A DNA stretch of 64,000 bases from the NCBI GenBank assembly GCA_029838195.1, contig JALGVJ010000004.1, forward strand, positions 128,001-192,000, read 5' to 3'. The notes beneath the pieces were generated by a model, which was not told where the DNA came from, ran no database searches, and was given only the letters and a program-made list of their open reading frames with translations. The first letter of the stretch is position 1; each line of letters opens with the position of its first letter. Both the position numbers and the translations under genes were made by a program. Positions 9,233-14,377 of the stretch are shown here, piece after piece. This DNA is from Promethearchaeota archaeon. Lineage in GTDB: Archaea > Asgardarchaeota > Lokiarchaeia > Sigyniarchaeales > SOKP01.

Positions 9233-10345
9233 TTATCTTTCAATTATTGTTTCTTTAATGGCTGTTCCAAAATGAGTAGCTCCTGGTCCCACGTGAGCTA
9301 AAACTTCATCTCCGATCTTTATATCCACCACGGATTTGGCTTTGCCTCCAGGAATTACAAATCGAATGGTCTCTGCATTCTGACAAGTGCAACTAATCGG
9401 GACTTTTTGCTCTCCCTTAGTTGCTTCAAATTCAAATCTCAACATGGGCCGAGTTTCAATTTTAATTCTTCCAACTGAAACGATACGAACGTGCCCTTCA
9501 TGATTCACGGCTAAGACTTGTTTTCCTCCCTTCAATTCGCTTAAATAACTGGTGCGATAGGGTTTATCAGGCTCGTCACTGGGAACTAGAATGTAGGCAG
9601 AAACATCCCCCGCATTAACTCGAAATGGTCTTGAGGCCACGAATTTAGTATCAAAAGTTTCTGAATGGATTAAGCAAAATCCTGCTGCAGTGGATCCAAC
9701 TAGGAAACCTTCTCCAAAATGAAGTAAAGAAGTGGTATCTACACAGACGCGATCTGCTTCTGGAATGTTTTCAATTTTCATAACTCGTGCCTTTGTTAGT
9801 TCAATAGTGAATTCTCCTTGCGTTAATTTTTTTAATTCAATTAAATCATTAGGATGGCGGGGTTCCATGAGCACGCCATCCACCCCTCGTTCTAACGTTT
9901 TCAACATTAATTCTGCCTCTTTCACGTTCTCAACCTCTGCTATAAGTTCTGTTTCATCTAATTGCATTTCAGCAATGAGATTCTCAAATGGGATCACTTT
10001 CCAATCTTTAGCGCTAACAATAATGAAATCAATGCTTGAGTTTCTTGAGATTTCTACGATTTCTCTCTCATCTTCTTTAGATTTTAACACCATATAAAAA
10101 CCAATTTTTTTGTTACTCTCTACGGATTTCCTTATTTCTTCAATTTCTTGTTTATCAGTCAGAATCACGTGAGTTGAAGACACGTCTTTATCTTTCGAAT
10201 AGGTAGTAAGGCGCTCGATGGCTTCAAATTCGGGCCATGTATCTCGAGAAATTAAGAAATTCAACAAATCCTTATTAAACGCTTGTTGTACTAATTCTTT
10301 AAAATTCGCCTTTTTTTTCTCAAAATTCAAGATAATTTTTTTCAT
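9233..10345 (-). CDS. aroB': 3-dehydroquinate synthase II (archaeal type)
   Basis: DWKVIPFENL, LERGVDG, DRVCVDT, RPFRVNAG, YLSELKGG, GRIKIETRP, QNAETIR. Confidence 0.93.
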   Translation of the reverse strand: MKKIILNFEKKKANFKELVQQAFNKDLLNFLISRDTWPEFEAIERLTTYSKDKDVSSTHVILTDKQEIEEIRKSVESNKKIGFYMVLKSKEDEREIVEISRNSSIDFIIVSAKDWKVIPFENLIAEMQLDETELIAEVENVKEAELMLKTLERGVDGVLMEPRHPNDLIELKKLTQGEFTIELTKARVMKIENIPEADRVCVDTTSLLHFGEGFLVGSTAAGFCLIHSETFDTKFVASRPFRVNAGDVSAYILVPSDEPDKPYRTSYLSELKGGKQVLAVNHEGHVRIVSVGRIKIETRPMLRFEFEATKGEQKVPISCTCQNAETIRFVIPGGKAKSVVDIKIGDEVLAHVGPGATHFGTAIKETIIER

Positions 10346-10506
10346 AATAGTGAAAATTGGACTAGTTAAAGTTTATTATATTTTATTTTCATTTCTTTAT
10401 TATTAGAGAATAGCATATAATCAACAATAAATATATAAGATTGAAATACATTTATTGAAATAAATTTTAATAATTATTTTTTAATTACAATTCGAACCAA
10501 ATCATC

Positions 10507-11157
10507 ATGGGAATTAAAAAAAAGCTTTTTCCCCGTAAAGCAAAAGAAAAGGATTCACTTGTCGCAAAGGCAAAATCCCATATTCATAGAATGGAATTAG
10601 CATCTCGAAATTTCCAAAAACGAGCCGAGATCAGCCGCCAAAATGCAAAAATTGCATTAAAGCGGGGTGAAAAAGAACGGGCGAAAGCATATTTAATCCA
10701 ATACAAGAACTATCAGAAAAAAATTGACCGCATGAATAATATTCGCACTAAAATAGAGAATTCCCTGCATGCAATCGAAGAAGGGCAAATGATTTCACAA
10801 ACCGGCGATCTTTTTGGTGGAATACGCGATACGTTAAAAGAAATCACAATAAAAGCTTCTCCTGAAAGAGTAGCCGAAATCGCCGAAGATTCTGAACAAT
10901 ATATAGCAGAAATAGAAGAATCAGCGGAAATTTTGGGAGGAGATTTAGAAGTTGACCTGGGAATTAGCGTGGATGATGAGCTAAATGAATTAGAGACTGA
11001 AATCCTTCTTGATCAAAGTGGCGAAATGCCTTCGGCCCCCTCGGAAGAGTTGAAATATATTCCGGAATATGGAACGGAACTAGAAGATACGGAAATGGAT
11101 ACAAAAGAAAAGCTTCAGAGTGAAATAGAAAAGCTTAGGAAGGAACTTGAAGGATAA
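10507..11157 (+). CDS. Snf7-family ESCRT-III protein (Vps20/32/60-like)
   Basis: Basic helical N-half with AKIALKRGEKERAKAYL; acidic C-half with VDDELNELE, MPSAPS and a terminal amphipathic helix; 216 aa. Confidence 0.88.
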   Translation: MGIKKKLFPRKAKEKDSLVAKAKSHIHRMELASRNFQKRAEISRQNAKIALKRGEKERAKAYLIQYKNYQKKIDRMNNIRTKIENSLHAIEEGQMISQTGDLFGGIRDTLKEITIKASPERVAEIAEDSEQYIAEIEESAEILGGDLEVDLGISVDDELNELETEILLDQSGEMPSAPSEELKYIPEYGTELEDTEMDTKEKLQSEIEKLRKELEG

Positions 11158-11223
11158 TTGAGAAAAATAATTCATTTTCATATCGTTTTTTATAAACAAA
11201 AGAGAGAATTTTTCCCGCGCGAA

Positions 11224-12249
11224 CTACTTTACTTCTTTTAAGGCTTGAACCATGGAATTTAATTTTGCTATCGTTATTTTATAAGCAATCTCTTCATTAT
11301 CAAAGGCTTTTCGTAAAGCTCCAAATCCACAATCTGGTTTAATGATGAGATTTTCTTTTCCATAAAGATCAAATCCTTTTTTTATAAAAGATTTCAAAAA
11401 ATCCATGTCTTCAATGTAATCATCGATTTTTCCTCCTGGAATGGGGCTAATACTGGTTTGGATGGTGCCCATGGCTAAATATTTTCCATGCGCTTCGAGA
11501 TCTTTTTTTTGAAACACGTTAAAATTTTTAGGATTTGTTCTAAATTCGTGATCCATGATCTTAACATCCGTTTGAAGGAGCAAATTATATAATTTAGGAC
11601 TTATTCTTCCACAAACGTGAATTGAGGGAAGGTCTTTAATGCCTGATAAAGCCCGATTTAACATTTCAATAACAAACTCTTCAGAATGAAACCAAATTTT
11701 ATTTCCAACCAAGAGGCTTAATATGGGTTCATCCATAGAGATGATGTTAATTCCAAAATCACTATATGCTTTAGCTACATCTTTCATGTAATCTGCAAAT
11801 TTTTGAACGACCCAATCCACCATAATTCCTCTTGGTTCTTTAAAGATTATGGGTTTAAATCCCTTAGAAAGGGGCTCTCTTAACAGAATTTCACTAGCCA
11901 ATGTAAAAGGGCCTGTTAAGCAGGCTTTAGTTCCTTGAATTGCTTGTTCTTCGTCCGGATGGTTTTTCAGAAATTCAACAATGAAATTTCCATATTTTAA
12001 AGCCACCAACTGATCAGGTATTTTAAATTCACCAGAAAGGTAAAAGGTATCATTAATTTCTTCCAATTCAGGGATTAACCGGGAAAGCGGAGTTAAAAAT
12101 TGAGGGTTCATAGCAACCAGTTGAGGATAACAGGGATAGTCAATTCCAATATTAATTTGGTCGTGAAATGCCCTTTCCATGTTTTCCTTTGTATTAGAGA
12201 GTGGAAACGAGCCTACGACCGTTGTAAATGGTACTATTGGTTTATTCAT
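11224..12249 (-). CDS. Cobalamin-independent methionine synthase, single catalytic (core MetE-type) domain
   Basis: TTVVGSFP, LTGPFTLA, MDEP, HVCG, PDCGF Zn ligands. Confidence 0.85.
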   Translation of the reverse strand: MNKPIVPFTTVVGSFPLSNTKENMERAFHDQINIGIDYPCYPQLVAMNPQFLTPLSRLIPELEEINDTFYLSGEFKIPDQLVALKYGNFIVEFLKNHPDEEQAIQGTKACLTGPFTLASEILLREPLSKGFKPIIFKEPRGIMVDWVVQKFADYMKDVAKAYSDFGINIISMDEPILSLLVGNKIWFHSEEFVIEMLNRALSGIKDLPSIHVCGRISPKLYNLLLQTDVKIMDHEFRTNPKNFNVFQKKDLEAHGKYLAMGTIQTSISPIPGGKIDDYIEDMDFLKSFIKKGFDLYGKENLIIKPDCGFGALRKAFDNEEIAYKITIAKLNSMVQALKEVK

Positions 12250-12361
12250 GTATAACTATAATGTTTATTATAATTTAAATTAAAGTGTGGATTCATGCGT
12301 AAATGAAATAAAAAAAAAGAAATGAAGAGGAAAAAAGCAATTTAAAGAAGGACCGCTATAA

Positions 12362-14377
12362 TTAAAATTGCATCCCTTCTGAGTAGTTTGTTCTAAAATT
12401 TATTCTTCTATTTCGTTCAATAGCTTCTTTTACGGTAATGATTTCATCTTCTAAAGAAAAAATTTCTTCTTGTAAGCTCCTGTACGTCTTAAAATAATCT
12501 TGCTTGCTAAGGCTTCCTTGATCAAATTTATTTGATAATTCTTTAAGAGTTTCTCTTAATGCATATTCCTTTTTTCTCAATTCATGTAATTTTTTCACGT
12601 GTTCCATGGAACTTCTATTAAATTTTCTGACGAATGTTGATGAAGCTTCTTTTGGAGAATATTCTGGGGTAAAATATTCAGATAAATGATTTTTGCGCAA
12701 GTCTTGATAAAACGGCCCGCATTTTTCACGTTCCTGGAAAATATTTTCGGGGTTATTTTTAACATTATAATCTCTAAATTCTTGAGCATTAATATCCGGG
12801 TTGATGAAATCTTCTCTGTAAAATTCATTTGAACGAGAATAAGGAGACATGTTTTCTTGATTTCTTTTTAATTTATTTATTAGATCCTTTTTCCTCGCGA
12901 ATTCCTTATTTCTTGTCCATTTCCATGCGGGAGGGACGTAAAAATCACTATCCCACATCCATGGATCTTGTTTTTGGTTTTCGCTAGCAAATTCGGATTT
13001 CAGAGCCTCTTCTCCGGGAATTGATTCAAAATTATTTTGATAATCATTGCATGTAAAATATCTATCCCGATGAGAAATCCTCTCATTTCCAAATCCTGCC
13101 TTTTTATTAAAGAAACTATTCTTTTTAATCAGATCCTTATTATATCCATGAGCAGAATTGTTTATTTTTTCATTAAATTTGCACTTCCTGTTATAAAAAG
13201 TATTAATTGCATTTTCAATGAAATGGGAAAGGTTATTCAAGGATATGGTTATAGAATCTAATTTTTTTACCGATTCAAGATTTCTTAAAACAGTTTCATC
13301 GAACGCCCTTGCTAAAAGAATATATTCTATCACTCGTGAGACGGATTTGGGAGGAAGTGCAAATTCATAAGTTCCATAACTAAATTCTAAATAAAGTTTT
13401 TTAAAAAAAAGCCCTTTTTCTCGAATTCGATTTATATCATTTACGGGTACTTTTATGATTAATTCTTGTTTCTTTTTTATAATGCCATATTCATGAATAA
13501 ACGATAAATCATAATTAGTAATAAATAGCATGCCTCTTTTTTTATTAAAAATATCCTGCCCATTATTATTACCATTTACTAATTTTGCGGGGATTGCATA
13601 CACGGCCTTTTCATTTTCCGCTAAACTTAAAAATCGTTTATAAGCTGAAAAATATTTCTTGATTTTTTCAATAAATTGTAGCTTTTTTTCATGGGAATTA
13701 ATTCCTTCAATTATCGGAGGTATGGTTGTTTCCATGTATTCTTGAATAGAATGAAAACTTCGAGATAGATTCTCTAATATTCCTTCTATAATTTTTATAT
13801 TAGAGTTTGGCTGAGCATAGATATTGAAAAAGAATTCTTCATTTACCGATAAATGATGAAAATGAATTCTTAATTTTTCAACTACATCGTTTTTTAATCT
13901 ACTAAATGCTTGATAAAGAGAAATCAGTTCTGTTTCCATGTTCGGAAAATGATAACACTTAATAGGAGGAGCTCGTGCTTCTTTAATTTTTTGTTTTACT
14001 AAAGTCCATTTTTCTAAAACTTCTCTAAGCGGAGGAAGAAGTTCCCTGCTACGAGTGATTAATTCCAAGAATTTCTGTTCTAAACTGTCTTTTTTTTCAA
14101 AAAGATTAATAATATTCATGGAATGACATTTCGGACAAGATTTTTCTACCCGGCTGATTTTAAGTAGTTTCTCACTATGACATTCCTTACAAACCTTCTT
14201 ACCATCAATATTTTCGGGTTCCATGGTAATAGCATTACATTCTTGACAAGTAAAAAAATCCTTACGCTCTTCCTGTAAACACTCCGAGCAGAAACTTGAT
14301 CCGCATTCTTCGCAATAGTGCGTTTCTTTTACTTGTTTCTGACAGAATCTACACGTGGAGGAGATTTTTTCAGCCAT
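12362..14377 (-). CDS. Multidomain protein: Cys-rich Zn fingers, coiled coil, PH/GRAM-like domain, C-terminal steadiness-box-like hairpin
   Basis: Six CxxC pairs in the first ~85 aa; GMLFITNYDLSF...VPVNDINRI; C-terminal LSNKFDQGSLSKQDYFKTYRSLQEEIF. Confidence 0.65.
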   Translation of the reverse strand: MAEKISSTCRFCQKQVKETHYCEECGSSFCSECLQEERKDFFTCQECNAITMEPENIDGKKVCKECHSEKLLKISRVEKSCPKCHSMNIINLFEKKDSLEQKFLELITRSRELLPPLREVLEKWTLVKQKIKEARAPPIKCYHFPNMETELISLYQAFSRLKNDVVEKLRIHFHHLSVNEEFFFNIYAQPNSNIKIIEGILENLSRSFHSIQEYMETTIPPIIEGINSHEKKLQFIEKIKKYFSAYKRFLSLAENEKAVYAIPAKLVNGNNNGQDIFNKKRGMLFITNYDLSFIHEYGIIKKKQELIIKVPVNDINRIREKGLFFKKLYLEFSYGTYEFALPPKSVSRVIEYILLARAFDETVLRNLESVKKLDSITISLNNLSHFIENAINTFYNRKCKFNEKINNSAHGYNKDLIKKNSFFNKKAGFGNERISHRDRYFTCNDYQNNFESIPGEEALKSEFASENQKQDPWMWDSDFYVPPAWKWTRNKEFARKKDLINKLKRNQENMSPYSRSNEFYREDFINPDINAQEFRDYNVKNNPENIFQEREKCGPFYQDLRKNHLSEYFTPEYSPKEASSTFVRKFNRSSMEHVKKLHELRKKEYALRETLKELSNKFDQGSLSKQDYFKTYRSLQEEIFSLEDEIITVKEAIERNRRINFRTNYSEGMQF

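Follow-up and report, generated by a model that had tools for sequence, protein, structure and literature searches.

A Lokiarchaeial protein with zinc fingers, a PH fold and a Vps23-like hairpin as a probable upstream adaptor in a single ESCRT system

Within a 64,000-nucleotide stretch of a Lokiarchaeial genome (the window; contig JALGVJ010000004.1 of assembly GCA_029838195.1), positions 10507-14377 carry the gene of a 671-amino-acid (aa) protein and, one gene away, a Snf7 gene of ESCRT-III, part of the endosomal sorting complexes that are required for transport (ESCRT). The 671-aa protein, hereafter the adaptor, probably acts upstream in one ESCRT system, with its locus being one half of a split ancestral gene cluster. 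Judged by its sequence, it is the ortholog of Lokiarch_16740 and a member of Znr_CC_PH_SB (asCOG cog.011556), an Asgard-specific family. The family, its domain architecture and the exact gene order had already been published, reportedly from 2015 onwards and up to 2024, and the present identification is a correct rediscovery. Added here are numbers for the phylum-wide convergent linkage between the genes of the adaptor and of B-type ESCRT-III, evidence that the two Lokiarchaeial loci arose when one ancestral cluster was split, and a direct profile-level link between the adaptor hairpin and a genuine UEV-Vps23. ESCRT-I and ESCRT-II adaptors set where and on which cargo ESCRT-III acts, and their Asgard versions inform the origin of the eukaryotic ubiquitin-ESCRT sorting pathway. 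The adaptor unites modules that are spread over ESCRT-I and ESCRT-II in eukaryotes, a point that has been made before (Caspi and Dekker 2018, Hatano 2022, Makarova 2024). The genes concerned are:

12362-14377 (-): adaptor gene, 671 aa (open reading frame and motifs)
11224-12249 (-): MetE-like gene, 341 aa, cobalamin-independent methionine synthase family (Pfam Meth_synt_2, E 4e-9)
10507-11157 (+): B-type ESCRT-III gene, 216 aa, Vps20/32/60-like, CHMP4-7 class (Pfam Snf7, E 4e-15)

The adaptor and Snf7 genes lie on opposite strands, 3' end to 3' end, with the MetE-like gene between them. All open reading frames and motifs quoted for this region in a preliminary description were recovered, as was the Snf7 gene at one gene's distance. 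The adaptor sequence contains CRFC...THYCEECGSSFCSEC, KKVCKEC, GMLFITNYDLSF and a C-terminal LRETLKELSNKFDQG... stretch.

Family identity

The adaptor was matched by protein P0099 with E 5e-144 (42% identity, 95% coverage). The 90% cluster of P0099 contains KKK44603.1, which is Lokiarch_16740 (650 aa), and the cog.011556 gene of Lokiarchaeum GC14_75 (11247..13199) likewise corresponds to 650 aa. The features of Znr_CC_PH_SB were all present in the adaptor, namely three zinc modules, a coiled coil, a PH domain and a C-terminal steadiness box. No NCBIfam family was found for the 671-aa protein.

Lokiarch_16740 was listed as the Asgard Vps23/TSG101 homolog, and Lokiarch_16760 as a Vps20/32/60-class ESCRT-III, by Caspi and Dekker (2018, Table 1). 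Makarova (2024, mBio, PMC10936438) described the family Znr_CC_PH_SB as 'a likely ESCRT-I component', stated that its PH domain 'is expected to be membrane associated' and drew an analogy with Vps36; Supplementary file 9 of that paper gives, for GC14_75, the order L35Ae - Znr_CC_PH_SB - MetE - Vps20-family ESCRT-III(-) - DHQS - GH57. In yeast two-hybrid assays, a 'freestanding steadiness box protein' from Loki and Thor interacted with Vps28 and Vps22 (Hatano 2022). The construct list of the same study includes the Thorarchaeal ThorAB25_08990|SB, in which the family motifs (CxxC pairs, GTLFITN) were recognized by eye in the unaligned sequence.

The steadiness-box hairpin

12365..12622 (-): helical hairpin, Vps23-type steadiness box, residues 586-671, helices 588-619 and 625-668 (Pfam, hhalign)

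By homology, the C-terminal hairpin of the adaptor was shown to be a Vps23-type steadiness box. Vps23_core was the top Pfam match of the adaptor (residues 594-640, E 1.7e-4, below the curated cut-off) and was matched by 35 of the 49 family members. When the family profile was compared with PDB sequences, the yeast Vps23 core came first (2p22_A, 2f66_A and 2caz_A; E 0.01-0.045) and was aligned on the hairpin. With hhalign, the family profile matched the UEV-Vps23 encoded at L096:1886-2719(-) with a probability of 95.7% and E 8.5e-9 over 59 columns, which correspond exactly to the hairpin. This UEV-Vps23 has 277 aa, is itself recognized by UQ_con (E 3e-17) and UEV (E 5e-6), and lies within a Vps23-Vps28-Vps22 operon. 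Since hhalign gave a match to UEV-Vps23 and no significant one to Vps28, Vps22 or Vps25, the hairpin was assigned to the Vps23 type; in the Vps22 and Vps25 of the adaptor's own genome, no steadiness box was found with the family profile. Pfam gave no match to UEV or UQ_con in the adaptor, whose N-terminus is occupied by a zinc module instead, nor any match to EAP30.

These results bear out the description of the region as steadiness-box-like. It had been envisaged that only generic SHOCT or coiled-coil profiles would recognize the hairpin; such matches were seen only weakly (coiled-coil families APG6_N, GvpG and CdvA, and SHOCT in one short relative), next to the alignment with UEV-Vps23.

The hairpin was also encountered in other combinations (P0211, P0233), such as CpXC plus hairpin (351 aa) and a 222-aa 'mini' version consisting of a bacterial-PH-like domain (bPH_3) plus hairpin. 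A scan of ten short hairpin-sharing proteins for UEV found none that carries it. Our analysis suggests that the steadiness-box-like hairpin is a mobile module.

Synteny and ESCRT gene inventory

The adaptor has more than 180 full-length homologs. Its family was present in 127 of 161 sampled Asgard genomes and in 114 of 121 sampled Lokiarchaeia genomes, with about one copy each. In the synteny sample of 60 fetched adaptor loci, the adaptor gene was convergent with an ESCRT-III gene at 28 of 30 loci from the same family, at all four loci from the same order (4/4) and at 17 of 19 loci from other classes. The adjacency of adaptor and Snf7 gene is therefore conserved across Lokiarchaeia and beyond, and this phylum-wide conservation supports the functional link that had been proposed for the two genes.

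The preliminary description had allowed for proximity by chance. A generic zinc-finger/coiled-coil protein outside ESCRT that adjoins the Snf7 gene by accident would agree with the opposite strands, the unrelated MetE-like gene in between and the weak matches of the hairpin to generic coiled-coil families. The convergence was kept, however, at protein identities of 20-30%, including inside complete ESCRT clusters, and where all other synteny was lost, which excludes chance; the alignment of the hairpin with UEV-Vps23 also speaks against this explanation, to which we attach a vanishingly small probability.

The gene order points to a split of the locus. In other classes (loci L086, L092 and L093), a complete and contiguous cluster was found with the order Vps22> <Vps25 <Vps4 IIIA> IIIB> <adaptor. 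In the adaptor's own genome, a cluster of this ancestral type is cut between IIIA and IIIB. Genera g4 and g5 of the same family lack the MetE-like gene, as do the sister family and other orders and classes; there, the two ESCRT genes are 80-600 bp apart. Because it is limited to some Lokiarchaeial genera, the distance of one gene is most likely the result of a derived insertion, and the MetE-like gene is a passenger between adaptor and ESCRT-III.

At one locus on a single 3.3-Mb contig (L042; G093 C1:433000-452900), the adaptor and the MetE-like gene were present, and ESCRT-III, DHQS and GH57 were absent from the 20 kb of sequence concerned, which suggests that the region was rearranged locally.

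The window Snf7 protein had as its best PDB sequence matches 9fn1_U, a 'Vps20/32/60-like protein (ESCRT-III)' (E 4e-88), and the Heimdall AB_125 ESCRT-IIIB (E 2e-7), and on this sequence evidence the gene is a B-type ESCRT-III. The genome has one other Snf7 gene, located on contig C87, which is A-type (best matches CHMP1B, CHMP2A and Vps24) and adjoins Vps4, Vps25 and Vps22. A single Vps4 was found in the genome, with one ESCRT-III per type. It follows from this inventory that the window locus is part of a single system spread over two loci, and the earlier proposal of a second minimal ESCRT module was abandoned; its premise, that the Snf7 gene lies apart from the Vps4/ESCRT-II locus, is correct for this genome. 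Asgard ESCRT-III of the B-type has been reported to start remodeling and to recruit the A-type (Souza 2025). The adaptor was the sole detectable carrier of a Vps23-type steadiness box in its own genome. No UEV-Vps23 was found there, the best UEV match being a 209-aa frame on contig C4 (E 0.007).

The labels given to ESCRT-III proteins are in conflict, as Lokiarch_16760 (Vps20/32/60-like) is 'ESCRT3A' in Supplementary Data 1 of Hatano 2022, and the CHMP4-7 class is 'B-type' in Souza 2025. The C-terminal part of the window ESCRT-III contains a PSAP motif; among 34 close homologs, P[ST]AP was kept only in the same-genus homolog and one other. What the ESCRT-III homologs conserve at the C-terminus is MPxxP, then an acidic segment and, at the very end, a helix of the form (D/E)EIxKLRKEL.

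Helical stalk, PH domain and linker

An AlphaFold 2 (AF2) model of the full-length adaptor was built from the 49-sequence alignment and had a mean pLDDT (predicted local distance difference test score) of 74. Between the zinc module and the hairpin, it contained the following parts:

13643..14104 (-): coiled-coil or helical stalk, residues 92-245, helices 92-135, 147-178 and 191-245 (AF2, pLDDT mostly >90)
13289..13642 (-): PH-fold domain of GRAM/GLUE type, residues 246-363, with GxLFITNxxLxF motif (AF2 and fold matches)
13103..13288 (-): post-PH helices, residues 364-425, short ones and then a long helix 381-423 (AF2)
12623..13102 (-): poorly conserved linker, predicted disordered, residues 426-585, short predicted helix 486-508 (AF2)

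In the linker, pLDDT was <50 at residues 426-489 and 510-585, and the alignment consensus was mostly undefined. Many positions of the PH-like region and of the C-terminal hairpin were invariant or nearly so among the 49 full-length homologs, and the basic PH residues K257, K301, K309 and K326 were invariant.

The PH region was modeled as a beta-sandwich followed by a C-terminal helix. Its strand motif, of the GxLxITNxxLxF type, is similar to the one in GRAM domains. With the whole model as the query, Foldseek retrieved the Lam6 PH-like domain, 4tyz and the Vps36 GLUE domain 2cay_A (E 1.4e-4). VIA-align of model residues 241-363 gave 4tyz_A (Z 13.3), the PH-GRAM domain of MTMR2 (Z 13.1; root-mean-square deviation (rmsd) 2.5 Å over 107 residues), Lam6 (Z 12.1) and BBS5 (Z 11.8), as well as the GLUE domains of human EAP45 (2hth_B, Z 11.5) and yeast Vps36 (2cay_B, Z 10.9). 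GRAM-type PH domains therefore scored above GLUE. The adaptor had no Pfam match to GRAM or to Vps36_ESCRT-II. The structural matches confirmed the region as PH/GRAM-like, as had been suggested.

A DH-PH (RhoGEF-like) fold was considered and rejected. Foldseek returned ECT2, p115, Dbs and Vav with E 1e-4 to 6e-6, but with rmsd 18-28 Å and TM scores <=0.34, and VIA-align gave rmsd 4.8-13.9 Å for the DH-PH entries versus 2-3 Å for PH-only alignments. We read these matches as reflecting the PH domain, the long helices being uninformative.

The N-terminal zinc module

14105..14377 (-): triple-zinc module, residues 1-91, six CxxC pairs (invariant Cys, profile and fold matches)

The six CxxC pairs are C9/12, C22/25, C30/33, C44/47, C63/66 and C81/84. 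All 12 Cys were invariant in an alignment of 39 homologs that share 20-56% identity with the adaptor; such invariance in distant homologs indicates a pattern under selection rather than a chance one. The first four pairs have RING/B-box/ZZ-like spacing, and a zinc-ribbon-like part extends over about residues 36-78. Residues 1-91 were beta-hairpin-rich in the full-length AF2 model, and a model of the zinc domain alone had a pLDDT of 81.

A profile of residues 1-96 matched PDB sequences of the RNF4 RING (E 1e-4), the TRIM2 B-box (E 8e-4), the B-boxes of TRIM3 and KAP1, the RINGs of COP1, RBBP6 and BRE1, and MCM/RPB12-type ribbons. Pfam zf-B_box matched 9 of the 49 family members below threshold, and further weak Pfam matches in the zinc region across the family were to double zinc ribbons, B-box and other ribbons. 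VIA-align reached Z <=4.9, its matches being ZZ, B-box, RING and U-box folds where the full range was aligned and zinc ribbons at residues 35-78, and Foldseek with the zinc-domain model found nothing significant (E >=0.1). The zinc module looks like a RING, B-box, ZZ or zinc-ribbon fold, between which its fine class is divided. The literature is divided as well, for Makarova 2024 (PMC10936438) read the region as three zinc ribbons, and the legend of Supplementary Fig. 8 of Hatano 2022 has RING, coiled coil (CC) and PH among its domain labels, which may concern this protein.

If the module, read as a cross-brace, were a RING/B-box E3 or another ubiquitin-system module, the protein would mainly ubiquitylate or recognize ubiquitylated ESCRT cargo or subunits and would not be just a passive adaptor. 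The RING and B-box profile matches would suit such a role, as would the name 'B-box zinc finger protein' that several adaptor homologs carry at NCBI, the RING label in the above legend and the alignment of the zinc-ribbon part with the RNF126 N-terminal zinc finger (VIA-align, Z 3.9), a finger that binds a ubiquitin-like (UBL) domain. However, all structural matches were weak, the ligand set is all-Cys and lacks the RING histidine, and the three-ribbon reading of Makarova 2024 points elsewhere, so we consider an E3 or related function improbable.

The assignment of the N-terminus to FYVE fingers in the preliminary description was rejected on profile score, signature motifs, and sequence and fold matches. 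Pfam FYVE scored E 0.61 and 10.7 bits on the adaptor (cut-off 27.8) and was not among the 25 Pfam families matched by most of the 49 members. The signature motifs WxxD and R(R/K)HHCR were absent, the sequence being MAEKISSTCRFC...KETHYCEEC, which is acidic or neutral at the basic-patch site; the homolog consensus at this position was YYCEECG. The top 50 of VIA-align for the zinc domain, all weak with a best Z of 4.9, contained no FYVE chain. Among the sequence and fold matches listed there was no FYVE structure, and two FYVE-related fingers appeared at noise level only (Slp4, E 0.38; Rim2 zinc finger in Foldseek, E 0.73). A FYVE-type, phosphatidylinositol 3-phosphate (PI3P)-binding analog of ESCRT-0, forming a second and independent minimal ESCRT module with an 'orphan' Snf7, would agree with the four CxxC pairs, spaced compatibly with a FYVE cross-brace, and with a locus apart from that of Vps4/ESCRT-II. 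Given the FYVE results, the single Vps4 with one ESCRT-III per class and the contiguity of the genes in other classes, we hold this combination to be very improbable. Of the idea that one polypeptide combines several recruiting modules, the PH and steadiness-box parts stood and the FYVE part fell.

Proposed role and the EAP30 fusion variant

We consider it likely that the Znr_CC_PH_SB adaptor acts upstream in one ESCRT system. Its hairpin would join a helical 'headpiece' with other ESCRT-I/II subunits (Vps28 and/or Vps22), and its GRAM/GLUE-type PH domain and triple-zinc module would contact the membrane, the cargo or both, with ubiquitin or ubiquitin-like proteins as possible ligands. By way of ESCRT-II/Vps25, this complex would then lead to nucleation of the polymer formed by the B-type ESCRT-III of the neighbouring gene. 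The ancestral cluster, with its gene order Vps22> <Vps25 <Vps4 ESCRT-IIIA> ESCRT-IIIB> <adaptor, would have been broken here between IIIA and IIIB, and a MetE-like gene inserted in some genera.

Several observations weigh against this proposal. The Vps23_core match of the adaptor (21.9 bits) was below the curated cut-off (26.8). With the Pfam VPS28 model, no canonical small Vps28 was found in the genome; the Vps28 C-terminal domain was detected only inside open reading frames of 791 and 850 aa (C54:56817-57089 (-) and C56:3064-3258 (-)). Against the family profile, a Vps28 hairpin from a different Asgard genome gave an in-register but non-significant alignment (hhalign E 0.21). No significant hhalign match was obtained to the N-terminus of the genome's own Vps22, which leaves Vps28 and Vps22 as candidate partners of the hairpin. 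Five loci from deeper Lokiarchaeia families, three of them on short contigs, had no ESCRT-III in the DNA examined. Finally, that the PH and zinc modules bind membrane and cargo is something we infer.

A variant architecture was found at L096:9025-10842 (+) (G160 contig C95). It is a 605-aa protein in which the Zn-CC-PH head is followed by EAP30/Vps36-family winged helices that replace the steadiness box; a similar fusion occurs at L095 around 9800-11600 (G168). Pfam matches of the L096 fusion were EAP30 (E 3.8e-8, above cut-off), zf-B_box (1e-3), bPH_3 (1e-3) and, weakly, the GLUE domain Vps36_ESCRT-II (0.012), and its head matched residues 9-293 of the adaptor (BLASTP E 3e-14). The fusion gene lies 1.7-1.9 kb from a B-type ESCRT-III gene, where it occupies the position of the adaptor, and the same contig carries the UEV-Vps23 - Vps28 - Vps22 operon. 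Archaea have been reported with only a single Vps22/Vps36-like gene, and the fusion is a Vps36-like architecture in archaea, perhaps the one published as cog.002441 (Makarova 2024). In archaea, the Zn-CC-PH head of the family might take the place of the Vps36 GLUE arm, present as a separate subunit that is attached through the steadiness-box hairpin, which we regard as doubtful. Should this head bind both membrane and ubiquitin, one could test how the GLUE function of ESCRT-II originated.

The fusion bears on the alternative that the adaptor is a separately supplied substitute for Vps36, belonging to the ESCRT-II arm rather than being an ESCRT-I subunit in a Vps23/Vps37-like slot. Its hairpin would then dock on Vps22, and its zinc fingers and PH domain would bind membrane and ubiquitin like yeast Vps36, giving the GLUE function that is missing in Asgard ESCRT-II. 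The structural matches of the PH domain to Vps36/EAP45 GLUE (Z 10.9-11.5), the two-hybrid interaction of the Loki steadiness-box protein with Vps22 (Hatano 2022), the reported fusion of Asgard Vps22 to a steadiness box and the analogy drawn with Vps36 (both Makarova 2024, PMC10936438) and the direct fusion of Zn-CC-PH to EAP30/Vps36-family winged helices in a rare lineage are all consistent with such a substitute. On the other side, the hairpin is specifically Vps23-like in hhalign and without similarity to the N-terminus of the genome's own Vps22, and GRAM-type PH domains outscored GLUE. The fusion, moreover, was found in only three protein clusters of a 5.8-billion-protein database, and Vps22 is a close match to its winged helices (tblastn E 4e-27), so that it looks recent and lineage-specific. 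We consider a Vps36 substitute the less likely account and favour an upstream adaptor with a Vps23-type hairpin.

Comparison with known systems

The adaptor resembles the FYVE fingers of Vps27/Hrs in nothing but the general spacing of four CxxC pairs, and the signature motifs are absent. The PH-GRAM domains of MTMR2 and Lam6 are the best named structural matches of residues 241-363 (Z 13.1 and 12.1), but the adaptor lacks the phosphatase or StART domain. Like Vps36/EAP45, it combines a PH fold of GLUE/GRAM type with zinc fingers on a single polypeptide; unlike Vps36, it has no EAP30 winged-helix core, and its zinc fingers are N-terminal, whereas those of Vps36 are inserted in the PH domain. 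Vps23/TSG101 shares with the adaptor the C-terminal steadiness-box hairpin with a helical region upstream. The adaptor differs from it in having zinc fingers and a PH domain in place of UEV, a disordered linker of about 160 residues before the hairpin and a long stalk N-terminal to the PH domain. The closest correspondence is to Znr_CC_PH_SB/Lokiarch_16740. That protein belongs to another Lokiarchaeial genus and is of 650 rather than 671 aa, and in the window a PHP-domain gene lies between L35Ae and the adaptor; the three zinc sites, coiled coil, PH domain, steadiness box and gene order are the same.

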